A stretch of DNA of 56,689 bases from an uncultured Candidatus Saccharibacteria bacterium (lineage in GTDB: Bacteria > Patescibacteriota > Minisyncoccia > UBA6257 > CAYRSR01), in contig CAYRSR010000005.1 in the NCBI GenBank assembly GCA_964427275.1, positions 1-56,689 of the forward strand, given 5' to 3'. The notes below the pieces were generated by a model, which had not been told where the DNA came from, did no database searches, and saw nothing but the letters and a program-made list of their open reading frames with translations. Shown here one piece after another: positions 306 through 50,986 of the stretch. Numbering within the stretch: position 1 is the first letter of the stretch; every line of letters begins with the position of its first letter. Made by a program: the position numbers and the translations under genes.

Positions 306-1595
306 TTAAGGTTTAGAAATTATTTTGACCAGCTCCTGCTTAACAATTTCAGATTCATTCCAGGGAATTTTTTTATGATTAATATGAATATAAGATTCAG
401 AACCTTTACCGGTTAAAATCACTATATCTCCAGGTTTAGCCAAAGATAGAGTCTTTTGAATAGCTTTTTTTCTATCCAGAATTTCATAAATGTTAGTAGC
501 TGGAAATTTGGCAGGAATTCCAGATTTTATATCCGATAAGATCCGAAAAGGGCTTTCATCATAAGGATCCTCATTAGTTAAAATTATTTGCCGGCAATAT
601 TTAGCTGCAATTTTTCCCATTTCTGGTCTTTTCCACTTATCTCTTCCACCCCCAGCACAACCCAACAAGCAGATCAGCTTTCCGTTAGCTTCTGGCCTCA
701 AGTTAACAATTGCTTGATAAGCTTTTTTTAAGCTGTCCGGAGTATGAGCATAGTCAATAATTACCATAAATGGTTCCTTTTGAATTACTTCCATCCTACC
801 CGGAGTTCCTGGAAATTTCTCAATTGCCTCCTTAATTAACTTGTCACTTATTCCTACTTCCTTAACAAAAGCTCTAGCAGCAGCAATGTTTTCAGGAAAA
901 ATAAAACTAGAGCCTGATAACAAAAAACTGGGTATTTTATCTTTAGAAAACAGAACAATTTTAGTATTTTGATTTTTTACTGCCTCAATGAAATGTTTAG
1001 CATTTAGGTCATCTTGATTAATAAAAAACAACCTATGTGGATGTTTGATGTTTGATGTTGGATGTTGGATGTTAGATGTTGGATGTTTGATGTTGGATGT
1101 TGGATGTTTGATGGTTGATAAGTTTTTCACGTAAGTAAAAAATTTAAGCTTTGCTTGCTTGTATTTTTCAAATCCTCCATGAGCTTCAATATGTTCAGGT
1201 GCTAAATTTAAAAACATTGCAGCATTCCAATTAATAAATCTGTGTCGGTGTTGAATAATTCCTTGAGAAGTAACTTCAATTAGAATAAAATCACAATTTT
1301 GATTTACTGCTTTCCTTAAAAACCTTTGAATGAAAAATCTACCTGGCATGGTAGTATCAGTTAAATTTTTAACTTTTTTATTGCCAATTTTTATCCATTC
1401 TGAAGAAATCAAAGCAGTCTTATAGCCGGCTTTTTCTAAAATAAAGCTGATTAAATCTAAGACACTAGTTTTTCCCTTAGTTCCAGTTACTCCTAAAATA
1501 AACTTTTTCCTGGAAGGAAAGCCAAATAAGATATTCCCCAAAAAAGCAAGTAAATAATGATAAACTGAAAAAATAAATCTTAATTTCTTTCTCAT
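306..1595 (-). CDS. murE: UDP-N-acetylmuramoyl-tripeptide synthetase (MurE family) with internal repeat insertion
   Basis: P-loop GVTGTKGKT, EVTSQG, NLAPEHIE, DYAHTPD, GGGRD and GKGSE Mur-ligase motifs. Confidence 0.88.
   Translation of the reverse strand: MRKKLRFIFSVYHYLLAFLGNILFGFPSRKKFILGVTGTKGKTSVLDLISFILEKAGYKTALISSEWIKIGNKKVKNLTDTTMPGRFFIQRFLRKAVNQNCDFILIEVTSQGIIQHRHRFINWNAAMFLNLAPEHIEAHGGFEKYKQAKLKFFTYVKNLSTIKHPTSNIKHPTSNIQHPTSNIKHPHRLFFINQDDLNAKHFIEAVKNQNTKIVLFSKDKIPSFLLSGSSFIFPENIAAARAFVKEVGISDKLIKEAIEKFPGTPGRMEVIQKEPFMVIIDYAHTPDSLKKAYQAIVNLRPEANGKLICLLGCAGGGRDKWKRPEMGKIAAKYCRQIILTNEDPYDESPFRILSDIKSGIPAKFPATNIYEILDRKKAIQKTLSLAKPGDIVILTGKGSESYIHINHKKIPWNESEIVKQELVKIISKP
1039..1122. 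repeat. Tandem heptamer NGATGTT x12 (84 bp) in frame within murE
   Basis: Ten exact NGATGTT units (1039-1108) plus two degenerate units; encodes (K/Q)HPTSNI repeats. Confidence 0.95.
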
Positions 1596-2161
1596 CTTTT
1601 GGATAAAACTTTTAAAGCCTGTCTTATTGCCGACTTCAAATCCAAATCTGCTGGAATCTGTTTCAAAACTCGACTAATCTCAGTTTTAGAATATCCCAAA
1701 TTAAGTAAAGCTTGTTTTAATTCTCGATAACTATTATCTTTTCTCTTTTGACTGGATTTAAACTTAGAACCGAGTTCTAAAATAATTCTTTGAGCTCCTT
1801 TTTTACTTAATCCAGAAACTTGAGACAAAAACTCTGAATCTCCACTACTTACAGCTGTCAAAATTCTTTTTACTTCAGCCAGGCTTAAAATTTTTAAAGC
1901 CAATTTTGGTCCAATTCCACTAACTGACCTAAGTGAATTAAATAAATCTCTTTGTTTCTCGGTTAAAAACCCGTATATCTCAAAACTACTTTCTTCGTGA
2001 TGAACAAAAACAAAACAAAAAACCTTTACTATTTTTCCAATTTTAGGAAGTCTTTTAATGTCTATTTCTGGAAAGAAAATTTTAAACCCACCCAAAGTAT
2101 TCTCAATAACAATAAAATTTTTTCCTTTTTCTATTAATTTTCCTTTAAGAAAATGGAACAT
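1592..2161 (-). CDS. ruvA: Holliday junction branch migration protein RuvA
   Basis: IYGF, SVSGIGPKLAL, HhH VSGLSKKGAQRIILEL, C-terminal ALLNLGY. Confidence 0.93.
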   Translation of the reverse strand: MFHFLKGKLIEKGKNFIVIENTLGGFKIFFPEIDIKRLPKIGKIVKVFCFVFVHHEESSFEIYGFLTEKQRDLFNSLRSVSGIGPKLALKILSLAEVKRILTAVSSGDSEFLSQVSGLSKKGAQRIILELGSKFKSSQKRKDNSYRELKQALLNLGYSKTEISRVLKQIPADLDLKSAIRQALKVLSKR

Positions 2162-2164
2162 AAC

Positions 2165-2923
2165 TTATTCTGACTCTGGATGATAAATAATTTTATTTTT
2201 TACCCGCAAGTCAATATAATTTAAGCTGGAAAAATCTTTCTGAGAAAAGAACTCTTTAATTAATTTACAAAAATCTTTAAACTTAAATTCCAAATTCAGG
2301 TAAATTTTTGGTCCAGAAGTTAAAACTTCTACCTCTCTGAGTTCCTCGGGCTTAATGTTTATATTAATAATCGGTAAGTCAGAATTTTTTAATTCTTTTA
2401 GATAAAACAAAAAATTTTCGATTAATTTCTCCTGTTCAAAAACTAAGCTACCCAGTTTGATTGGACAATCACGATAATCAGTTACATTAATCAAGACTTG
2501 TCCTTTAGCTTTGGGAGCTAAATCAAACAAAACTCCCTGATTGTCAAACCAGAAGCAATCAGAAGTTTCAGGTTTGCACAAAATTCCATAAGGTTTTCTG
2601 AGCTCCACCTGCAAGCTTACCTGTTTCTTTCTAAAGTCTCTTAATATTTTAAATTTCGAAACTTGAGGAATAAAAAAATTTGATTCTATATACTCAGACC
2701 AGAATAACAAATTCCCTGGACCAACTAAGGATAACCACGGGTTACCCAAGCCAACCAGTATTGCTTTATCCTTAATGCGGCTTTTAAAATGGTCATTTAA
2801 TTGCTGGTTTAATCCAATTACACTTAAACTATTCACCTTGAAAACATCGGTATAAAAAATCAAATAAAAACCGGAAACTAAAATAACAATTAAAATAAAA
2901 ACTAGAATAATTAACTTAGGCAT
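2165..2923 (-). CDS. FtsQ/DivIB-like cell division protein
   Basis: Single N-terminal TM helix, POTRA-like segment, C-terminal YIDLRVKNKIIY motif typical of FtsQ. Confidence 0.65.
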   Translation of the reverse strand: MPKLIILVFILIVILVSGFYLIFYTDVFKVNSLSVIGLNQQLNDHFKSRIKDKAILVGLGNPWLSLVGPGNLLFWSEYIESNFFIPQVSKFKILRDFRKKQVSLQVELRKPYGILCKPETSDCFWFDNQGVLFDLAPKAKGQVLINVTDYRDCPIKLGSLVFEQEKLIENFLFYLKELKNSDLPIININIKPEELREVEVLTSGPKIYLNLEFKFKDFCKLIKEFFSQKDFSSLNYIDLRVKNKIIYHPESE

Positions 2924-7242: not shown

Positions 7243-9387
7243 ATGGAAAAATCTTACAATCCAAAACTGGTAGAAGAAAAAATTTACAAGTTCTGGTTAA
7301 AAACTAAGTATTTTAATCCAGATAAGCTCCCTAAGACTTACAAATCCAAGCCTTATTTTACTACTCTACTTCCACCACCCAATATCACCGGTTCTTTACA
7401 CTTAGGTCATGCTTTAAATTCCACCATTATTGATATTTTAATTAGATATAATCGATTAAATGGTAAAAGAGCAGTTTGTTTACCAGGAACCGACCATGCT
7501 GGAATAGCTACTCAAAATGTAGTTGAAAAAAAGCTTAAACAACAAAATCAAACCAGGTTCGATATCGGTCGAGAAAAGTTTATCCAGTTAGTTTGGAAAT
7601 GGAAAAATAAATACGGAGAAATAATTTTAGAACAATTAAAAAAGTTAGGATTGTCAGCTGACTTTTCCAGAAACAGATTCACCATGGATGAGAAATATTC
7701 CAAGCAAGTTCAGCAAGCATTTGTCCATTACTTTAAAAAAGGACTAATCTATCGAAAAAAAAGAGTAATAAACTGGTGTCCTAGATGTCAAACTTCGCTT
7801 TCAGATTTAGAGTTAAAATACCGACAAGAAAAAACTAAATTATATTATCTCCGCTATCCTATTCAATCAAAAGCAAATAAAGCCTATGTAGTGGTAGCTA
7901 CTACCAGGCCAGAAACTATGCTTGGAGATACTGCAGTAGCAGTAAATCCTAAAGACAAAAGATATCAAAAACTTATTGGTAAAGCAGTAATATTACCATT
8001 AGTAAATCGAAAAATAAAAATAATTGCTGAGCCAAGAGTTGACCCAGAATTTGGTACTGGAGCAGTCAAAGTAACCCCAGCTCACGACTTACTTGACGCC
8101 GAAATAGGAGAAAAAAATAACCTTGAAGTAATTCAGGTAATAAATCAACAAGGTAGAATGAATGAAAATGCTCTAAATTACCAAGGTCAATCTACTCAGG
8201 AGGCTAGAGTAAATATAGTTAAAGACTTACAAAAACAAGGCTTAATTGAAAAAATTGAACCTTACACACATAATGTAGCCGTATGTTACCGCTGTGAAAC
8301 TAAAATTGAACCAATACCTTCTTTACAATGGTTTCTAAAGATGGATGATTTAGCTAAGCTAGCAAAATCAGCAGTTAAATCTGGACAAGTAAAGATTATT
8401 CCAAAAAGGTTTGAAAAAATATACTTTGATTGGCTTAATAACATCAAAGATTGGTGTATTTCCAGACAAATCTGGTGGGGACACCGATTACCTGTTTGGT
8501 TCTGCCAAAAAAATCAAGATAAATTTGTAACATCTCTTAAAAAACCAAAAACTTGTCCTTTCTGTAAAAAGTGTAATATGCAACAGTCAAATGAAGTACT
8601 GGATACCTGGTTTTCTTCAGCTCTCTGGCCATTTGCAGGACTATCAAAGCCCGACTTAAAAAAATTCTATCCTTCAGACACTTTAGTTACAGCTAGGGAT
8701 ATTATTAACCTGTGGGTAGCTAGAATGATTTTTTCCGGATTGGAATTTCAACAGAAAAAGCCTTTTTCTAAAGTTTTTATTCATCCAACTATTCTAACTA
8801 AGGAAGGTAAAAGAATGTCAAAAAGTCTAGGAACTGGAATAGATCCTTTAAACCTGATTGAAAATTTTGGAGCAGATGCTCTCCGCTTTGGAATTATCTG
8901 GCAAGTTGGTACTGCTCAGGATATCCACTGGGATGAAACTGCAGTAGTTGCTGGAAAGAAACTTAACAATAAAATCTGGAATGCAGCTAGGTTTGTTTTA
9001 CAACAATTATCAAAACATCCAAAAACATCTAATACTTGTTTGAATTTGTCTTCACTAACTAAAGCTGATAAATCCATTCTTTCTGAATTAAGAAAAACTA
9101 AAAAGGTAGTGAAAAAATACATTGAAAATTTTCAATTTGGTTTTGCTTTACGTCAGATATATCAATTTTTCTGGCATAAATTCTGTGATAAATATATTGA
9201 AACTTCCAAAATCCAAATTCGTAATCCCAAAACCAGCAAGTCAACCAAAAAAGTTCTCCTTTATGTTTTAAAAGAAACCCTTAAAATTCTTCACCCATTC
9301 ATTCCATTTATCACCGAAGAAATTTACCAGAAATTACCAAAATCATTGAGAAAAAGAAGTTTAATGATCGAAAGTTTAAATGACTAA
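7243..9387 (+). CDS. valS: Valyl-tRNA synthetase (no C-terminal coiled-coil arm)
   Basis: PPPNITGSLHLGHA, DHAGIATQ, TTRPET, DWCISRQ, LDTWFSS, RMSKS. Confidence 0.97.
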   Translation: MEKSYNPKLVEEKIYKFWLKTKYFNPDKLPKTYKSKPYFTTLLPPPNITGSLHLGHALNSTIIDILIRYNRLNGKRAVCLPGTDHAGIATQNVVEKKLKQQNQTRFDIGREKFIQLVWKWKNKYGEIILEQLKKLGLSADFSRNRFTMDEKYSKQVQQAFVHYFKKGLIYRKKRVINWCPRCQTSLSDLELKYRQEKTKLYYLRYPIQSKANKAYVVVATTRPETMLGDTAVAVNPKDKRYQKLIGKAVILPLVNRKIKIIAEPRVDPEFGTGAVKVTPAHDLLDAEIGEKNNLEVIQVINQQGRMNENALNYQGQSTQEARVNIVKDLQKQGLIEKIEPYTHNVAVCYRCETKIEPIPSLQWFLKMDDLAKLAKSAVKSGQVKIIPKRFEKIYFDWLNNIKDWCISRQIWWGHRLPVWFCQKNQDKFVTSLKKPKTCPFCKKCNMQQSNEVLDTWFSSALWPFAGLSKPDLKKFYPSDTLVTARDIINLWVARMIFSGLEFQQKKPFSKVFIHPTILTKEGKRMSKSLGTGIDPLNLIENFGADALRFGIIWQVGTAQDIHWDETAVVAGKKLNNKIWNAARFVLQQLSKHPKTSNTCLNLSSLTKADKSILSELRKTKKVVKKYIENFQFGFALRQIYQFFWHKFCDKYIETSKIQIRNPKTSKSTKKVLLYVLKETLKILHPFIPFITEEIYQKLPKSLRKRSLMIESLND

Positions 9388-43511: not shown

Positions 43512-44705
43512 TTGGAAGTTTCAGAAACAATGAGTGATATAAGTATCTGGAAAAAGAAAATAGAGCTAGCCAAACAGAGTTTAAGGCCAGACGATGCCTG
43601 GATAATTTACACCGCTGAACAAAAAGACCAGACTTTTGAGCTTTTTGGTTTACAACCGGTAGCCGCAACGGTGCTTATAATTTCTAAAAAGCTTACTTAC
43701 CTAATTTGTGGTAAACTTGATTTTTCAAATGTTCCAAATATTTTTGATAAATCTGAATTTTGGGCTGAAAGCGAAGAATTTAAGAAAAAATTTTTCCAGG
43801 CCATTCAGCAAATAAATCCAAGAAATATATTTTTAAATTATAGTAAGAGTGATATTCAAGCAGATTTTCTTGGACATGGGAGCTACTTAAATTTAATCCG
43901 ATTGATTAGAAAATCAAAAGTAAGAGCCAAAATCAATTCAGCTCTACACTTAATTTACAGGTTATTCAACAAGAAAACACCTGAAGAAATAAAAAGAATA
44001 AGCAAGGCAGCAAAAATTAGCCACCAGATAATTTTAAAGGCATTTTCCCAATTAAAGACCGGAATGACCGAAATTGATATTTATAACTTAATTCATAAAT
44101 TGGTTGAAAACTATCCAGAAAAACTGGAATTTGCCTGGGCTGAATCTATGTGCCCAATTGTACTCATTGGCAAAAGAATTGGAAAAACCGAAAATGCCCA
44201 CAGTAAGCCAACCAGAACTAGATTAAAACCTGGAAATATGATTTATGTTGATTTTGGCCTGAGATACAAAGGATATGGTTCTGACATTCAGAGAGCAGCT
44301 TATATGTTGAAACCAAAAGAGAATTTTCCTCCAGCTGAAATCCAGAGAAGATTTGATACTACAATCAAGTCCATAAATGCGGCAGCTAAAGCTTTAGTTC
44401 CTAAAAAAACCGGCAAAGAAGTTGATCTGGTAGCCAGGAAAGTGATTATAGATACAGGATATCCTGAATATGAGCATGGCACCGGGCATCCAATTGGTAA
44501 ATTTGCCCACTCCCCAGGACCTTCACTCAGTAAACATTCAAAAAAAGCAAATATTGAGATAGAAGAAGGATATGTATTTACCATTGAACCAAGAATCACT
44601 TTACCGAATGGATGCTCTATAGAGGAAGATGTAATAGTAACCAAAAATGGAGCAAAGTTTTTATCTCCCAGACAAACTAAGCTTTTTTTAATTAAAGCTA
44701 GTTAA
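43512..44705 (+). CDS. M24 Xaa-Pro aminopeptidase (start probably ATG 43530)
   Basis: YVDFG, YGSDIQR, HGTGHPIG, FTIEP and SIEED metal-ligand motifs; adjacent to efp. Confidence 0.88.
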   Translation: MEVSETMSDISIWKKKIELAKQSLRPDDAWIIYTAEQKDQTFELFGLQPVAATVLIISKKLTYLICGKLDFSNVPNIFDKSEFWAESEEFKKKFFQAIQQINPRNIFLNYSKSDIQADFLGHGSYLNLIRLIRKSKVRAKINSALHLIYRLFNKKTPEEIKRISKAAKISHQIILKAFSQLKTGMTEIDIYNLIHKLVENYPEKLEFAWAESMCPIVLIGKRIGKTENAHSKPTRTRLKPGNMIYVDFGLRYKGYGSDIQRAAYMLKPKENFPPAEIQRRFDTTIKSINAAAKALVPKKTGKEVDLVARKVIIDTGYPEYEHGTGHPIGKFAHSPGPSLSKHSKKANIEIEEGYVFTIEPRITLPNGCSIEEDVIVTKNGAKFLSPRQTKLFLIKAS

Positions 44706-46306
44706 TGTATTCTATCTCTTTGTTCTTTAAGGAAGTATCTCCATTGAGCAATAAATTCAACAAAAGTTCGAAATGGAACTTCAACCAGTAAGTTAAAGAT
44801 TATCCCAACTATGTTGATTTTTCTCCATTTAGAAGACAACCACTTTCCCAAATGAAGTACCGGCAAAGCAAATTGTGAAAAAAAGCTATCTATAAAAGTA
44901 GCTTTGGTTTCAATCACATGTAATTCTTTTGCTCTTTCTCTGATAATTGTTCCAGTATAAGCAATCAAAGCAGTAAATATAACCAGAATTAAATAAGAAA
45001 GTGGAGGAAAATTAAACAGATAAGCCAAAAAAACCACTATTCCCCAGGATATTAGAAAACTTAAGGTAAATAGAAACTTAAGAATAATTTTAACTATTAG
45101 CGAACTTTCCGGGTAAACATCTATTTCGTGAACTTCAGCTTCATTTGTACCGTAGCAAATTCTTTTTACTTCTTCTATGACTAATTTAAGATTTTCCTCT
45201 GGAGGCAGTTTAATAGTTCCAACCAAAAAAAACATCAATAGAGTTGGTCCAAATATATCAAATAACCTGGCCCAGGGATTTAGAAAACCAATTCCGGTCA
45301 ATTTAACAAATGGAATTTCAATTAAATAAAGTGCAAATACATTAGTTAAAAATACTGAAATGGTAGCATATAAAGCTGCTCTGTAGGACCTAGTTTTTAA
45401 AGTTGAAAGTCGCTTAAGATAAGCCTGGGCAGTTAAACTTTCCAGAGTTTTTGAATCGGCTATTTTTTCATCAATATCCTCAAAATTTTCTCTAATAATA
45501 TCTCCCAGTAATAGAAACGGTGTATCGTATCTTTCACAAAGCTTATAAAACTTGCCGGCTAGCGGGTGATTTAAAATACTTTCAAACTCATCTAAAATGC
45601 TGTAAAATTTTTGGCTTACTTCAGATAATTCTGCTTTAGAGATTTCAAACCAATTTGAGTACTTCTTTTTTAGAAGGTTGTAGTAAATAACCGAGCTATC
45701 AAATTTAAATAAGGCCTGTTGTATTGCAACATAAAGAAGGGTTTCTTTCTTAGACTCATCAATTATTTTTTTATCCAGTGCTCTTTTTCCCAATCTTATC
45801 TTTTCTCTCATTAAGCTTTGCATGCATTCAATCAGAATATCGGCCCGCTGATAAGAAAATGGATCAAGAATTTGTTCAATTTCACAGCTAGCAATTTGAA
45901 AAATTGGTAGTTGAACTTCAGCTTCAGTCTTCCCGCTTGGAACTGGAGGTAAATGATCTAGAATAAATTTGTACTTGTTAATTGCATTTTGTACTAACTT
46001 AATTTTTGACTTCGGGATATAGTCATTTGGAAAATGTCCTCCGCTAACCAATTCTAAAACAAATGGTTCAGCATCCAGTTCATTTAAATAAAACCTTCTT
46101 TTTAAAATTCTTTCAACAGCAATTCGACGCATCAAATGTTCTTCCTTCCAATCTACTACTCTTCTAATTTTCTCATAACCGGTAGCTAAAGCAGTAACTA
46201 CTTCATCTGCATGCACGGTAGGCTCCTCTAATGGGGCTTCCAGTTTTCTTTTCCAGGTTCGATATTTTTCAATTAAAGATTCAACAGCAGGAGTTAGTCC
46301 AGCCAT
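44702..46306 (-). CDS. Hypothetical multi-pass membrane protein
   Basis: 534-aa ORF with a helical N-terminal region and several C-terminal TM segments; no motif I can name. Confidence 0.7.
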   Translation of the reverse strand: MAGLTPAVESLIEKYRTWKRKLEAPLEEPTVHADEVVTALATGYEKIRRVVDWKEEHLMRRIAVERILKRRFYLNELDAEPFVLELVSGGHFPNDYIPKSKIKLVQNAINKYKFILDHLPPVPSGKTEAEVQLPIFQIASCEIEQILDPFSYQRADILIECMQSLMREKIRLGKRALDKKIIDESKKETLLYVAIQQALFKFDSSVIYYNLLKKKYSNWFEISKAELSEVSQKFYSILDEFESILNHPLAGKFYKLCERYDTPFLLLGDIIRENFEDIDEKIADSKTLESLTAQAYLKRLSTLKTRSYRAALYATISVFLTNVFALYLIEIPFVKLTGIGFLNPWARLFDIFGPTLLMFFLVGTIKLPPEENLKLVIEEVKRICYGTNEAEVHEIDVYPESSLIVKIILKFLFTLSFLISWGIVVFLAYLFNFPPLSYLILVIFTALIAYTGTIIRERAKELHVIETKATFIDSFFSQFALPVLHLGKWLSSKWRKINIVGIIFNLLVEVPFRTFVEFIAQWRYFLKEQRDRIH

Positions 46307-46786: not shown

Positions 46787-46815
46787 ATAATAAAACATTT
46801 TGTGATTTTAGTCAA
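46787..46815 (-). promoter_or_regulatory. rnpB promoter
   Basis: TTGACT, 17 bp, TATTAT just upstream of the P1 5' strand. Confidence 0.7.
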
Positions 46816-46830
46816 GTTCCTTACACTTTG

Positions 46831-46872
46831 AAAAAAAGAAAGGGAGTAGAACTTTTTAACTCTACTCCCTTT
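46831..46872 (-). terminator. Cassette terminator hairpin (also at 47901-47934 and 49626-49659)
   Basis: AAAGGGAGTAGA...TCTACTCCCTTT 12-bp stem plus U-tract; three identical copies. Confidence 0.8.
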
Positions 46873-46917
46873 GTTAACTACATTTTTAGCCTGGAAAAAA
46901 TTTGTAGGGTTTAGAAT

Positions 46918-47640
46918 CTAAAGGTCTCTACTACCACAGGAGGGCGAACCCCACGAGTTACTCTCACTATTGACCCAACATTGATCGAGCATCGGTATAT
47001 CCAGCAGCACGACATCCGGCACCATATCTCTCTCATCATAGCTACAACGGGAACCAGTAGCCTGGACGTAGTGATGTTTAAGCACATTAGTGTGAACACA
47101 GAGCGCAATAATTTCAGCAGCAGTAAGGGGGGATCTCGGCTGTTCTTCGAGAATTTTTTCTGCCTCTTTTGGGCTCTTTCCAACAAGCCTCCTACCATCC
47201 TCAATATCATAGATGTAGTAGGGTTTATCTGGAGTTTTAATCTTATCGGTAATACTAGTAACAACTACTGGATCCAGATGAACGTAGCCCCGCTTGTCAC
47301 CATTTCGTACCATAGCCATCAGATCATAGAAACTCCGATAGGTTTGTGGAATAACTGGAATGAATGGAATATGTCCATTTTCAAAAGCAATTTTACTTGC
47401 TTTCGAGAGTACCGAACTTTTCTGTGCAACAAGCAATCCAATAATCTGGTCAGGGCAGCCGCGATCCCATAGGACTTGAATCTGGCTATCAAACAATTTC
47501 TCTAAGACTTCATACTTGGGTTTCTTTGCTTCAACTACCAGCCGATTTTTGGCTTCTTTGATTGCTTTATCAATATCTTTGTCTGAAATACCTTTGAAAA
47601 GTGACACTAACTTATCAACCAACTTATCCTCTTTACCCAT
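46918..47640 (-). CDS. DUF5701-like protein, paralogue A
   Basis: PFIPVIP, YDIEDG, SPLT, WGSPSCGSR; family name from memory, needs an HMM check; SD-supported start at 47640. Confidence 0.55.
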   Translation of the reverse strand: MGKEDKLVDKLVSLFKGISDKDIDKAIKEAKNRLVVEAKKPKYEVLEKLFDSQIQVLWDRGCPDQIIGLLVAQKSSVLSKASKIAFENGHIPFIPVIPQTYRSFYDLMAMVRNGDKRGYVHLDPVVVTSITDKIKTPDKPYYIYDIEDGRRLVGKSPKEAEKILEEQPRSPLTAAEIIALCVHTNVLKHHYVQATGSRCSYDERDMVPDVVLLDIPMLDQCWVNSESNSWGSPSCGSRDL

Positions 47641-47714
47641 CTTCACCTCCTTTTTCAAGTTTTTCCAGAAATATTTGTTAATGTTCAAGCCAGTTTATTT
47701 TTACTGTTGGGAAA

Positions 47715-47743
47715 GGTATAACACAATATGTTATATTTGTCAA
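47715..47743 (-). promoter_or_regulatory. Promoter of paralogue A with internal palindrome
   Basis: TTGACA, 17 bp, TATACC with extended TG; ATAACA...TGTTAT inverted repeat within it. Confidence 0.6.
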
Positions 47744-47789
47744 GCCCTTGTAAGACAGGTATGTTTTGATAAGTATGATTTTCGCAGGC

Positions 47790-47934
47790 TATCTCAATAA
47801 GGAGGTTTTATTTAAAGAAGTCAATTTAAAGTTAAAATCTTTAAGTCTTCTTTTTTAGTTATAATCAGTACTTAACCAATTATCTGGCATCTTAAAAAAG
47901 AAAGGGAGTAGAACTTTTTAACTCTACTCCCTTT
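47790..47934. repeat. 145-bp direct repeat, copy 1
   Basis: Base-for-base identical to 49515-49659. Confidence 0.95.
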
Positions 47935-48082
47935 GTTAATCCTTTAGGTAGCCTGCAAAAAAGTTGCAGGACTTAAAACAAAAGCCACGATTTTTGCTGT
48001 TCACTTCCAAATCTATTCCGTGTAAAATTTTTATTCCATTATGACCTGTTTTTAGATTATTTATTTTAAGCTTAAAATTAAG

Positions 48083-48847
48083 TTACCGTACTTCAGAAAA
48101 AATAAAAATTAATCTTTGTTTTAATTCAGGAATAATTTTTCGGTAATTAGAAGGCAAAAATTTTACTAAATCAAGATAAATTTTCTTTTCTGGATAATTT
48201 TTGATTTTTTCCAAGAAAAACTTCTTGTGGAATTCTAAATTTACTGTTTTTAGTTTTTTTTTCAAAAGTTTTTTGTTTATTAAAACTCCTTTATCTAAAA
48301 GATACCACAAATCAAAAATATCTCTTCCTTTTCCTCGCCAAAGAAAAGCCCTGATTTTTTCAACTAAAATTTCTTCTTCTTTTTGGCAGGAAACCAAAGA
48401 GAAAAAATTAACCGGAAATTTTGTTTTTAAAGAAAGAATGTTTGGCTCAAGAAAAGTTCTCTCTAAAGAAAAATCCAACCTTATTGTTTGAGGAAATTTT
48501 AAGAACTTACTTTCATATTTTAACCTAAATCTTAATGAGTTTTTTCCCCGATAAATAAAACTTAAACTTGATTCTGGAACTTCAATTTGAAATTTTTTTA
48601 TTATCTCTTTTAAAAAGTTTTTAATTTTCTTTTCAGAAAGAGTGGTTGAAAAGTCCAAATCTTCTGAAAACCTTGGAGATTTATAAAATAAATGAAGGCA
48701 AGTCCCTCCTTTAAAATAAATTTTCTCAGCCAACTTTTCTTTGTAAAGATAATTTAAAAACAAAATCTGGAGATACTCCCGAAATATAGTAAACCTGTCA
48801 ATCTTAAAATACTGGGAAAGTTGTTCTAACTGGGTTTTACTTATCAT
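48083..48847 (-). CDS. abiEii: AbiEii-type nucleotidyltransferase toxin (type IV TA)
   Basis: IYFKGGT, RFSEDLDFS, EKIRA, RDIFDL. Confidence 0.9.
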   Translation of the reverse strand: MISKTQLEQLSQYFKIDRFTIFREYLQILFLNYLYKEKLAEKIYFKGGTCLHLFYKSPRFSEDLDFSTTLSEKKIKNFLKEIIKKFQIEVPESSLSFIYRGKNSLRFRLKYESKFLKFPQTIRLDFSLERTFLEPNILSLKTKFPVNFFSLVSCQKEEEILVEKIRAFLWRGKGRDIFDLWYLLDKGVLINKKLLKKKLKTVNLEFHKKFFLEKIKNYPEKKIYLDLVKFLPSNYRKIIPELKQRLIFIFSEVR

Positions 48848-48850
48848 AAT

Positions 48851-49447
48851 TTATAAAAACTTTTTCAATTTTTCTTGCTTGGTTTCTTTTAAAAGAGAAA
48901 AAAACTTCTTTTTATTTATCAAACTTAGGTCAAAATCATCTTTTTCAAATCTTCTCAATCCCTTTGAACAAAAATAAAGATAATCAAAAAACGCTTTTTC
49001 TTTAGAGGCAATTAAAAATTTTTCTTTTTTTTCATAATCAAAAAACAATTTGGGTTTGATATGAGAATAAAAAAATTCTTTATCGAGTGTTTTTATGATT
49101 TTTGTTTTTTTAAGAGTGACTGAAGTAACTTGATAAGGAAACTGGGTAATAATTCCATAAAAAGACAAAGCTGATTCTAAAGAAATATAAGAAGGAGAAT
49201 ATAAAAAATTGGCAATTTGAAAATCATCGCTTTCTGAAAAAACAAAGAGATATTTCTTTTTAATCAATCTTTTTAAAATTCCTTTTTTGGTTAATCTTTC
49301 TAAAATTTTAGAGGCGGTATTTTCTTTTTTAATCTGAAAAAATTTTTTAAAATCAGAAAAAGTAAAAAGAGAAATTCCTTCTTCCTTTAGTTTTTTAATA
49401 ATTATTGTTTGAGATAACGATTCCTTCATCAGTATAATATTATACAA
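48851..49447 (-). CDS. abiEi: AbiEi-type antitoxin / transcriptional regulator (start probably ATG 49429)
   Basis: wHTH-like N-terminus, PSYISLESALSFYG, ASKEKAFFD; immediately upstream of abiEii. Confidence 0.85.
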   Translation of the reverse strand: MYNIILMKESLSQTIIIKKLKEEGISLFTFSDFKKFFQIKKENTASKILERLTKKGILKRLIKKKYLFVFSESDDFQIANFLYSPSYISLESALSFYGIITQFPYQVTSVTLKKTKIIKTLDKEFFYSHIKPKLFFDYEKKEKFLIASKEKAFFDYLYFCSKGLRRFEKDDFDLSLINKKKFFSLLKETKQEKLKKFL

Positions 49448-49514
49448 TTTCTGTCATTGTGTCAAATAGCTGTCAAAATGTAATTATCTTATACAGCTGA
49501 GAATTTTCGAAGAT

Positions 49515-49659
49515 TATCTCAATAAGGAGGTTTTATTTAAAGAAGTCAATTTAAAGTTAAAATCTTTAAGTCTTCTTTTTTAGTTATAATCAGTACTTAA
49601 CCAATTATCTGGCATCTTAAAAAAGAAAGGGAGTAGAACTTTTTAACTCTACTCCCTTT
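49515..49659. repeat. 145-bp direct repeat, copy 2
   Basis: Identical to 47790-47934. Confidence 0.95.
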
Positions 49660-49705
49660 ATTAACTACATTTTTAGCCTGGAAAAAATTTTGTAGGGTTT
49701 AGAAC

Positions 49706-50341
49706 CTAAAGGTCTCTACTACCACAGAAGGGCGAACCCCAGCGTTCATCCCGAGTATCGACAAGGCCCCATCCGAGGACTGGCATACCACCATGTAGGA
49801 AAATAGCTGGTATTCCGTCGTCTGACTTGTTATAACAGGAACCAGCAGCCTTGATATAGTGATGTCTAAGTACATCAGTATGAATGGTAAGTGCTATAGC
49901 TTCGACAGTAGTAAGTGGAGACCTTAACTGCTTTTTAAGGATTTTTTCTGCATCCATCGGACTCTTTCCAAGAAAAGCTCTACCATCCTCAACATCATAG
50001 ATATAATAAGGCCTACCTGGAGTCTTAACCTTATCAGTAATATCTGCTGGATCCAGCTGGGTGTAGCCCCACTCGTTACCATTTCGTACCATGGCTATCA
50101 GATCATACAAGGTCCTGTACCTCTGTGGAATAACCGGAATAAATGGAATATGTCCATTCTCAAAAGCCATTTTACTTGCTTTCGAGAGTACCGAACTTTT
50201 CTTTGCAACAAATAGCCTAACAATCTGTTCAGGACAACTAAGATTCCGCAAAGTTTGAATCTGAGTGTCAAATAATCTCTCTAAGTCTTTATACTTGAGC
50301 TTATTTGATTCAACCGCCAACTTATCCTTACTCTTACCCAT
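49706..50341 (-). CDS. DUF5701-like protein, paralogue B
   Basis: About two-thirds identical to paralogue A over the core; WGSPFCGSRDL end; SD-supported start at 50341. Confidence 0.55.
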   Translation of the reverse strand: MGKSKDKLAVESNKLKYKDLERLFDTQIQTLRNLSCPEQIVRLFVAKKSSVLSKASKMAFENGHIPFIPVIPQRYRTLYDLIAMVRNGNEWGYTQLDPADITDKVKTPGRPYYIYDVEDGRAFLGKSPMDAEKILKKQLRSPLTTVEAIALTIHTDVLRHHYIKAAGSCYNKSDDGIPAIFLHGGMPVLGWGLVDTRDERWGSPFCGSRDL

Positions 50342-50417
50342 TTTCACCTCCTTTTTTTCAAGTTTTTTCAGAAATATTTGTTAATGTTCAAGCCAGTTTA
50401 TTCTTACTGTTACAGAA

Positions 50418-50446
50418 GGTATAACATAACATGTTACATTTGTCAA
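50418..50446 (-). promoter_or_regulatory. Promoter of paralogue B with internal palindrome
   Basis: TTGACA, 17 bp, TATACC; TAACATGTTA palindrome in the spacer. Confidence 0.6.
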
Positions 50447-50527
50447 ATCTTTGTAAGATAGGTATATTTTTGATTAAGTATGATTTCCACAAGCTACCTC
50501 AATAGAAGATTTCATTTAAAGAGGTTC

Positions 50528-50986
50528 CTATAAAATTAGATTCTTTAAGTCTTTTTTCCTATGCTTATGTTCAGCTAATACTTTTTTAACCAGCTTATCG
50601 GCTGGTTTATTTTCTTTTCGGGAGATATAAATAAAATCCACTTTTTTGAAGTCCTGTTTTAAGTTCCAAATTTCAATAAATAAAGGGAAAAGTTCCCGAT
50701 GTTTAATTTTATAAGTTCCATTTAGTTGATTTACTATTAACTTGCTATCTGAACGAATCTCAACTTCAGTTTGTCTGGTTTTAGTTTTACCTATTAATCT
50801 CTTTAATTTATTTAATCCAAAAATCACTGCTTGATATTCAGCAATATTGTTAGTAGTTTCTCCAATAAACTTAGAATAGTTTTTGACTTCTGACTTTAAA
50901 TTTTGAATCTTAACAACTATTCCAATTGCTGCCGGGCCAGGATTTCCAATTGAACCACCATCAGTATTAATAATAACTCTGCTCAT
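50528..50986 (-). CDS. rnhA: Ribonuclease HI
   Basis: TDGGSIGNPGPA, TNNIAEY, SDSKLIVNQ, NKPADKL. Confidence 0.93.
   Translation of the reverse strand: MSRVIINTDGGSIGNPGPAAIGIVVKIQNLKSEVKNYSKFIGETTNNIAEYQAVIFGLNKLKRLIGKTKTRQTEVEIRSDSKLIVNQLNGTYKIKHRELFPLFIEIWNLKQDFKKVDFIYISRKENKPADKLVKKVLAEHKHRKKDLKNLIL

Follow-up and report, generated by a model that had tools for sequence, protein, structure and literature searches.

Small gene units lined up at one chromosomal site are known from several systems. In streptococci, integrative and conjugative elements (ICEs), integrative and mobilizable elements (IMEs) and cis-mobilizable elements (CIMEs) accrete at the 3′ ends of housekeeping genes (review PMC7563491; ICEberg, PMC6323972), and chromosomal integron arrays that are stabilized by toxin–antitoxin (TA) units hold linear series of small gene units with recurring structured sequences between them. 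Tandem duplication followed by unequal crossing-over is a further route to a row of similar units. The locus described here can be compared with all of these. It lies on contig CAYRSR010000005.1, a single whole contig of 56,689 bp with a G+C content of 34% (referred to below, at its full length, as the window), which belongs to a host of the Patescibacteria, or candidate phyla radiation (CPR), in hydrothermal-vent metagenomes. On the minus strand, between rnhA and the RNase P RNA gene rnpB, DUF5701 paralogue B, an abiEi–abiEii pair and DUF5701 paralogue A follow one another as three units; all of these elements had been named, in this order, in an original prediction made from the sequence, and matches in Pfam, PADLOC and Rfam place every one of them there. 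The locus is a real, dynamic tandem array. It is best explained as a fresh instance of known genome dynamics and not as a new cassette system, and it was probably built by duplication, payload replacement and homologous recombination rather than as a series of integrase-less cassettes.

Among the described systems, tandem duplication with unequal crossing-over resembles the array in its identical unit boundaries, its sister paralogues, its homogenized junctions and the fact that a whole unit differs between relatives. The units are collinear and head to tail, they share the same end points, and the two DUF5701 copies are each other's closest relatives (support 100/99). The array differs from a simple tandem duplication in that one payload is foreign and in that the units are old and diverged (59% amino acid identity between the two DUF5701 proteins), not recently amplified. 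With TA-stabilized integron arrays the locus shares linear small gene units, a recurring structured sequence between them and one TA unit. In contrast to an integron, it has no intI, attI or Pc, its units carry TTGACA-type promoter-like sites of their own, intrinsic terminators stand where attC sites would be, and the recurring sequence is derived from a neighbour gene. This negative, like the others below that concern recombination genes on the contig, covers its 47 open reading frames (ORFs) of at least 90 aa, 27 of which were scanned against Pfam while the other 20 were judged from the ORF list. The scanned ORFs are all housekeeping or unannotated, and no integrase, transposase, resolvase or reverse transcriptase (RT) was found, so the search for a cognate integrase suggested by the original prediction turned up no recombinase on the contig. 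Streptococcal accretion, finally, is similar in that the array is anchored at a gene 3′ end, that this end is duplicated at the junctions and that the members lack an integrase of their own. It differs from the present locus, which has neither a terminal att-like copy nor an integrase, whose DUF5701 payloads are in-place paralogues, and whose payload family is not bound to rnhA elsewhere; both DUF5701 (contigs L005 and L006) and abiE occupy other loci. The locus is a caution that the duplication of a gene 3′ end does not by itself prove the action of an integrase.

Anatomy and proposed origin of the array

Each unit consists of a copy of the rnhA 3′ end (segment a), a promoter, a payload, a 3′ untranslated region (UTR) and a terminator (t). 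Alignment shows the units to be head to tail, and a and t occur three times each, once per unit, which bears out the three-unit array with common junctions that had been predicted (Table 1). The terminator contains a 34-nt hairpin, AAAGGGAGTAGAGTTAAAAAGTTCTACTCCCTTT, present in exactly three copies (46839–46872, 47901–47934 and 49626–49659), with none expected in shuffled sequence. The recurring structure is a 15-pair hairpin with a T-run, of the intrinsic-terminator type, followed by rnhA-derived DNA; in the spacer between the last terminator, tA, and rnpB, alignment finds no rnhA-like sequence. The rnhA-like segment begins near position 50602, 24 to 25 codons ahead of the rnhA stop codon, and continues into the DUF5701 promoter region at 84 to 88% identity. 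The AbiE pair is flanked by repeat R, which is identical over 145 nt (47790–47934 and 49515–49659) and extends to 162 nt at 98%. Its composition, a terminator joined to degenerate DNA that copies the final ~25 codons of rnhA and what lies downstream of them, is as first described.

The two DUF5701 genes are paralogues. Units B and A can be aligned collinearly from about 50602 (rnhA codon ~128) to the terminator T-run, with about 70% identity in the rnhA-like part, 84 to 88% in the promoter and leader (88% over 117 nt for the promoter stretch), about 77% in the coding sequence (CDS) and 95 to 99% over the final ~120 nt. A maximum-likelihood tree built from 35 DUF5701 homologues groups A with B as sisters on long branches. 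The next relatives, with 62 to 66% amino acid identity, come from other Parcubacteria and lie at unrelated loci, and a search of 5.8 billion proteins found none about 90% identical to A or B. One homologue (L005) is located between a glycosidase gene and a NUDIX gene, and another (L006) adjoins an rRNA operon. When L005, the sole homologue so compared, was set against units A and B by BLAST, nucleotide similarity was confined to the CDS and no rnhA remnant was found. As sister paralogues, A and B must have been duplicated in place and not recruited separately, and the unrelated contexts of the other homologues indicate that DUF5701 is not tied to rnhA.

What we infer from these comparisons is how the events followed one another, that the recombination was homologous and not site-specific, and what the units do. 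The ancestral locus would have held rnhA, a single DUF5701 gene, equipped with a promoter and a hairpin terminator of its own, and rnpB. A segment of about 1.07 kb, which starts about 75 nt within the 3′ end of rnhA and takes in the whole DUF5701 terminator, would then have been duplicated head to tail, probably twice; given these endpoints, each unit starts with an a and ends with a t. The internal a copies would have been non-functional and would have decayed. At a later stage, which would precede the split from the closest relative (L009), the middle copy may have been overwritten from its −35 box to about its stop codon. The incoming piece, of about 1.5 kb, would have come from an ABC-transporter locus and brought abiEi and abiEii with the abiE promoter, together with the 28 codons at the start of an adjoining ABC ATPase gene. 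The repeated t+a junctions could in turn have served as substrates for homologous recombination or gene conversion, through which 145 nt were homogenized at the two abiE junctions and unit B was removed (or added) in one lineage. Read in this way, the locus is a small-scale record of a streamlined CPR genome remodelling an intergenic spacer: a unit is duplicated along with part of the gene upstream of it, a defence/TA module that bears a scar of its former locus takes the place of one copy, and units come and go.

Two smaller features of the rnhA 3′ end can be added. An 8-bp hairpin, AACCAGCcgatAAGCTGGTT, lies inside it at the 5′ edge of the duplicated segment (50588–50607); the original duplication may have arisen there by slippage or template switching. 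The rnhA product is 152 aa long here and 141 aa in L009, most homologues having 136 to 149 aa; a 2-nt length difference ahead of the L009 stop codon (50528–50575) shifts the frame and adds 11 C-terminal residues, KHRKKDLKNLIL.

Table 1. Features of the array, of its surroundings in the window and of the retroelement on contig L111
Sequence	Feature	Position	Strand	Basis
Window	rnhA, RNase HI family, 152 aa	50986–50528	−	Pfam RVT_3 5.8e-19, RNase_H 6.5e-12
Window	Segment a0, genuine rnhA 3′ end (last ~25 codons and ~30 nt downstream), start of duplicated unit	50500–50602	−	B-versus-A local alignment, multiple alignments
Window	Unit B promoter-like site, TTGACA-17 nt-TATACC	50418–50446	−	Sequence reading; failed the −10 hexamer rule of the consensus scan
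Window	DUF5701 paralogue B, 211 aa, strong Shine–Dalgarno site	50341–49706	−	PF18959 3.8e-10
Window	Repeat R copy 1, exact 145 nt: terminator tB (49626–49659), T-run, decayed rnhA-end copy a1	49515–49659	−	
Window	DUF5701-type promoter-upstream remnant in abiE unit	49467–49498	−	Alignment, L009 sequence
Window	abiE promoter: TTGACA, 15–17 nt, TATAAT/TAATAT; ATG ~8 nt further	49437–49465	−	Promoter scan
Window	abiEi, antitoxin/transcriptional regulator, 192 aa from ATG	49429–48851	−	PADLOC AbiEi 2.3e-35; start as in L004 and L009
Window	abiEii, DUF1814 nucleotidyltransferase toxin, 254 aa	48847–48083	−	PF08843 1.1e-29; PADLOC AbiEii 3.4e-33
Window	ABC-transporter ATPase pseudogene fragment, ~28 codons, start codon lost	47981–48067	−	79% nt identity to ABC_tran gene start
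Window	u′, diverged DUF5701 3′UTR remnant upstream of abiE-unit terminator	47935–47980	−	86% to the A and B 3′UTR–terminator stretch, 72 nt
Window	Repeat R copy 2, exact 145 nt: terminator tE (47901–47934), T-run, decayed rnhA-end copy a2	47790–47934	−	
Window	Unit A promoter-like site, TTGACA-17 nt-TATACC	47715–47743	−	Sequence reading; homologous to unit B site
Window	DUF5701 paralogue A, 240 aa from ATG after AGGAGG site	47640–46918	−	PF18959 1.5e-12
Window	Terminator hairpin tA	46839–46872	−	3′UTR and terminator 99% identical to those of unit B over 72 nt
Window	rnpB promoter-like site of its own	46787–46815	−	Promoter scan
Window	rnpB, RNase P RNA	46775–46398	−	Rfam RF00010, 119.4 bits
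L111	Variable region	712–836		
L111	Reverse transcriptase domain	1149–2237		RVT_1 2.2e-26
L111	Accessory protein bAvd	2201–2560		bAvd 1.2e-23
L111	Template repeat, inverted	2606–2730		

Source of the AbiE unit

The middle unit had been identified as a type IV TA module, and by sequence it is a bona fide type IV TA/abortive-infection module of the AbiE kind. It matches PF08843 and the PADLOC models for AbiEi and AbiEii, the two genes are adjacent in one operon, only 3 nt apart, and the nucleotidyltransferase (NTase) motif GG-x14-DLDF can be read in the product. Like the described AbiE systems (PMC3985639, PMC7319586), it is a bicistronic abiEi–abiEii pair with a DUF1814 NTase toxin and a compact promoter of its own that moves with the module. 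Unlike them, it sits in a Patescibacterium host, inside a duplicated DUF5701 unit and with a fragment of an ABC ATPase attached. An AbiE system that stabilizes a mobile element has precedent (PMC11062541); a stabilizing role in this array can be raised by analogy as a possibility, and AbiE may, incidentally, penalize loss of the middle unit.

The abiE promoter accompanies abiE in all contexts. Similarity to modules at other loci starts at 49465–49479 in the window, and in all compared modules it begins 5 to 15 nt upstream of the −35 box. The idea that the abiE and DUF5701 promoters are homologous through the −35 box was rejected, as abiE at other loci reveals that the shared part ends just upstream of abiE's own promoter. 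Comparison with those loci marks the abiE segment as foreign in origin. Modules with 88 to 92% nucleotide identity are found between a Peripla_BP_6 gene and an ABC_tran gene (L096–L098, L109), in the same and in other environments, and more distant ones (83%) occur in still other contexts (L099–L108, L110); abiE at other loci is without R-like flanks. In loci of the L096 type, similarity does not stop at abiEii but reaches the first part of the neighbouring ABC ATPase gene. The fragment of that gene left in the window translates as INNLKTGHNGIKILHGIDLEV, against ISNLKSGYNGMEILHGIDLEV for the ABC_tran gene 3′ of abiEii in L096–L098 and L109. The DNA 5′ of abiE is of DUF5701 type, comprising an a copy and the promoter-upstream stretch as far as the −35 box. 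This is clearest in L009, in which TCAAAATATACTTGTCTTA matches TCAAAACATACCTGTCTTA of unit A. A DUF5701 3′UTR remnant, u′, follows on the other side (Table 1). With DUF5701-type DNA on both sides of the import, and with the ABC fragment inside, the most economical interpretation is that abiE was written over a third copy of DUF5701. Because the segment carries a piece of a former neighbour gene, it points to illegitimate replacement and not to site-specific cassette capture.

Several side observations concern the abiE module. Just upstream of its −35 box, a 21-nt loop between CAGCTG(T)/(A)CAGCTG arms (49467–49498) is inverted relative to L009 (~9000–9035) and to the upstream DNA of the A/B type. 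On direct reading, 18 of the 21 positions match the L009 loop after reverse complementing, and the difference appears to be a small hairpin-mediated inversion. A Logan contig (L110:202–3128) holds two tandem abiEi–abiEii modules, the second of which is 84% identical in nucleotide sequence to the module of the window. Variants about 92% identical to the window's abiE (48290–49410) are present in runs X1–X3 and reach 6 to 8 times the depth of this strain in run X2. They have different flanks, with loose ends at 48057, 48196 and 49403, so they are taken to be related modules in other, more abundant members of the community.

Variation between relatives and integrity of the assembly

The closest relative, L009, is a 9.5-kb JGI contig with about 90% DNA identity to the window and the same NusB–RNase III–TIM–PGK–DHH–rnhA synteny. 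Its rnhA product (P0100, 141 aa) is 91% identical to that of the window. In L009, rnhA is joined directly to abiEi (93% nucleotide identity to the window abiEi) and unit B is absent; the content of the interval thus does vary between relatives, as the original prediction had anticipated. L009 has a single copy of a, of hybrid make-up: its 5′ portion agrees with a0 (55/60 and 29/33), and its 3′ portion agrees with a2 at 32 of 33 positions, against 26 of 33 for a0. The pattern can be read as the mark left by crossing-over between two copies of a. Units therefore appear to be gained or lost by recombination between repeats. The L009 lineage more probably lost unit B than the lineage of the window gained it, because the divergence between A and B (59% amino acid and ~77% nucleotide identity) exceeds the divergence between the strains (~90% nucleotide identity). 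The identity of the two R copies, in turn, suggests recent gene conversion or unequal crossing-over between the junctions: the abiE unit is older than the split from L009, but the junctions on its two sides are identical. A more distant relative, L094 (rnhA 66% identical, same NusB-to-rnhA synteny), has a different small gene after rnhA, and that evolutionary distance makes the difference weak evidence. The gene is a 73-aa ORF directly after rnhA (L094:5321–5542), with a strong Shine–Dalgarno site, a G+C-rich hairpin and no Pfam match. A neighbouring rnpB was not found beside rnhA in L009 (in which the contig ends early), L010, L012, L094 or L095.

The original prediction had allowed for the identity of the repeat being an assembly artefact, and in sequence it is not one. 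Independent k = 141 assemblies of other samples (L001, L002 and L004) break exactly 140 nt inside R, as expected of a genuine 145-nt repeat in two copies. The order B–abiE–A rests on the window assembly, on L003, on equal depth and on the relative L009. No contig but the window spans both flanks of an R copy with long-range support. L003, from another sample, runs from rnhA through B and R into abiEi and so crosses one R copy, but with a k shorter than the repeat. In run X1, the depth of abiE is 10.5–11.1 and that of the flanks 9.4, and the two are also about equal in run X2. Excision or amplification of the TA unit via the perfect repeats, which had also been proposed, would be possible, but the k = 31 contigs of the 2018 runs gave no signal of excision, of a circle or of amplification, and abiE lies at the depth of its flanks in X1. 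A Logan contig of run X4 that joins 46831 to 47894, and that would delete unit A, was rejected as a low-coverage k = 31 graph artefact, because the terminator stretch in common spans 46 nt, coverage is only 2.9 and the A-side contig of that run begins at 46852, which leaves it 4 nt short of the branching k-mer. Joins that would mark an a0 × a1 deletion of unit B or an R × R deletion of abiE were likewise not reported in the k = 31 run contigs, the latter being a join that contigs of this k could not reveal across a 145-nt repeat.

DUF5701, retroelements and alternative explanations

A by-product of the analysis, maybe more useful than the array itself, is a link between DUF5701 and diversity-generating retroelements (DGRs). 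Contig L111 (IMG/VR UViG_3300035698_027858) carries at 116–2730 what is by its layout a canonical, complete DGR, with a DUF5701 homologue as its target. The variable region (VR) is formed by the last 125 nt of the DUF5701 gene and is 86% identical to the template repeat (TR); 15 of the 17 differences fall at TR adenines, and the variable codons of the TR are AAY/AAG. In a codon alignment, the C-terminal segments of A and B (46925–47060 and 49712–49850, minus strand) are homologous to the L111 VR, with the common end ...WGSPxCGSR, and they are ungapped and 61% identical to one another. The last ~35 nt of A and B, TGGGGTTCGCCCTyCTGTGGTAGTAGAGACCTTTAG, are one base apart and look like the L111 VR at its 3′ end. 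On this homology, array units A and B are genes of a DGR-target family, and their products are probably ligand-binding proteins. For DUF5701 (PF18959), a family that is widespread and of unknown function, this provides a first functional handle, that of a DGR variable protein, or diversified binding protein, at least in Parcubacteria. The AlphaFold2 model of paralogue A has a mean predicted local distance difference test score (pLDDT) of 95.8, and the best PDB and BFVD matches of the DUF5701 model are C-type lectin domains, although weak (probability 0.1–0.3, E > 0.1). The suggestion that DUF5701 is a hidden recombinase or nuclease was rejected, the model being confident and without a significant fold match or anything enzyme-like. 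PHROGs and PADLOC gave no matches to DUF5701, and PDB sequence matches to designed armadillo repeats were set aside, as they cover only a 30-residue helix. Beside the DUF5701 homologue of L006, a 159-aa C-terminal RT fragment and a truncated bAvd (L006:8933–9769), with no detectable VR/TR pair, look like a decayed DGR.

Could a DGR have organized the array itself? A, B and the former third copy would then be targets of one DGR, the uniform 3′ ends, 3′UTR and hairpin would be cis elements of mutagenic homing, and the repeats would be a by-product. Multi-target DGR loci (PMC8144416, PMC11661182, PMC6328139) are similar in that the DUF5701 C-terminus is homologous to the L111 VR, in the conserved gene ends with a hairpin and in the duplicated target-type genes. 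The complete element of L111, the RT and Avd fragments adjoining the DUF5701 gene of L006 and the weak lectin-like fold matches all favour such an origin, as do the last ~120 nt of A and B (95 to 99% identical, against ~77% elsewhere) and a hairpin-bearing 3′UTR layout (A/T tract, hairpin with A-rich loop, T-run) that recurs after the DUF5701 genes of L111, L006 and L005. However, no TR-like copy, RT or Avd is found in the 56.7-kb contig, and the two VR-like segments, which differ at scaffold positions too, are too unlike for one current TR. Homing would also leave the rnhA-like part of the repeat and the abiE unit unexplained. We consider this origin unlikely. It is compatible with duplication and addresses why the ends stay alike, not how the array arose, and keeping homing signals may contribute to the 95–99% identity of the A and B 3′ ends. 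Somewhat less probable again is site-specific accretion, in which each unit would be an integrase-less mobilizable element, CIME- or cassette-like, whose att site mimics the rnhA 3′ end and whose recombinase is encoded at another genomic site, by a phage or by some other element. It would account for a target-gene 3′ end duplicated at every junction, for the perfect junction repeats and for close relatives that either have or lack unit B, the break lying within the rnhA-like repeat. The altered DNA 3′ of rnhA in L094 also agrees with it, and short contigs make up most of those with abiE homologues, which would suit modules bounded by repeats or variable between strains. Yet A and B are sister paralogues, the last unit has no attR-like copy, the units have their own promoters and DUF5701 genes elsewhere are neither at rnhA nor flanked in this way. 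The abiE modules at other loci lack R-like flanks, and that of the window drags along a piece of its old neighbour. The contig is without a recombinase, and neither the terminator nor the core of a was matched in 2.9 million viral contigs. The integrase-less or remotely catalysed cassette platform put forward in the original prediction is thus poorly supported. Very improbable, in our view, is the more specific proposal that the junction of terminator and rnhA remnant serves an unlinked, trans-acting recombinase as its recombination site, so that promoter-to-terminator units (DGR-target genes, AbiE) are moved in and out at the rnhA end; if true, Patescibacteria would possess a chromosomal cassette platform distinct from both integrons and ICE-type islands.

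A mis-assembly is the least credible alternative and can be given hardly any weight. The chromosome would read rnhA–B–R–A–rnpB, and abiE with one R would be a 1,725-bp circle or belong to another strain. With an exact 145-nt repeat and a k of 141 or 31, the assembly graph permits both pairings; sample ERZ27248139 has the abiE unit as a contig of its own (1,862 bp, R at each end), and no independent contig crosses abiEii–R–A with unique DNA on either side. Against this stand L009, in which abiE is chromosomally joined to rnhA via unique sequence, the run from rnhA through B and R to abiEi in L003, and runs X1 and X2, in both of which abiE is as deeply covered as its flanks. In addition, the DUF5701-type upstream and 3′UTR remnants of the abiE unit make sense only within the array. 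Duplication, payload replacement and homologous recombination remain the probable account, and some points weigh against it as well. The two 145-nt repeats are 100% identical in surroundings that have diverged by 7 to 14%, so that an extra event is needed; the original duplication junction gives no clue to the mechanism; L009 ends inside abiEi, and the direction of the change in unit B follows only from the depth of the A/B divergence; and the recombinase search covers the 56.7-kb contig, an unlinked recombinase elsewhere being possible.

The array region is transcribed from the minus strand with housekeeping genes around it, in the order NusB, RNase III, TIM, PGK, a DHH/DHHA1 protein, rnhA, the array, rnpB and a 534-aa multi-pass membrane protein. 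A scan of genome contigs with PGK gave only two distant matches. A metagenome scan with the 534-aa protein gave 80 loci, all at most 47% identical except the same strain (L014); that strain aside, none has rnpB, rnhA, DUF5701 or abiE nearby, so synteny is lost at that distance and no comparison was gained. The membrane protein itself (44702–46306, 3′ of rnpB) has no Pfam match and no conserved neighbours among the genes tested, and is kept at 39–47% identity in at least 79 Parcubacteria metagenome contigs.

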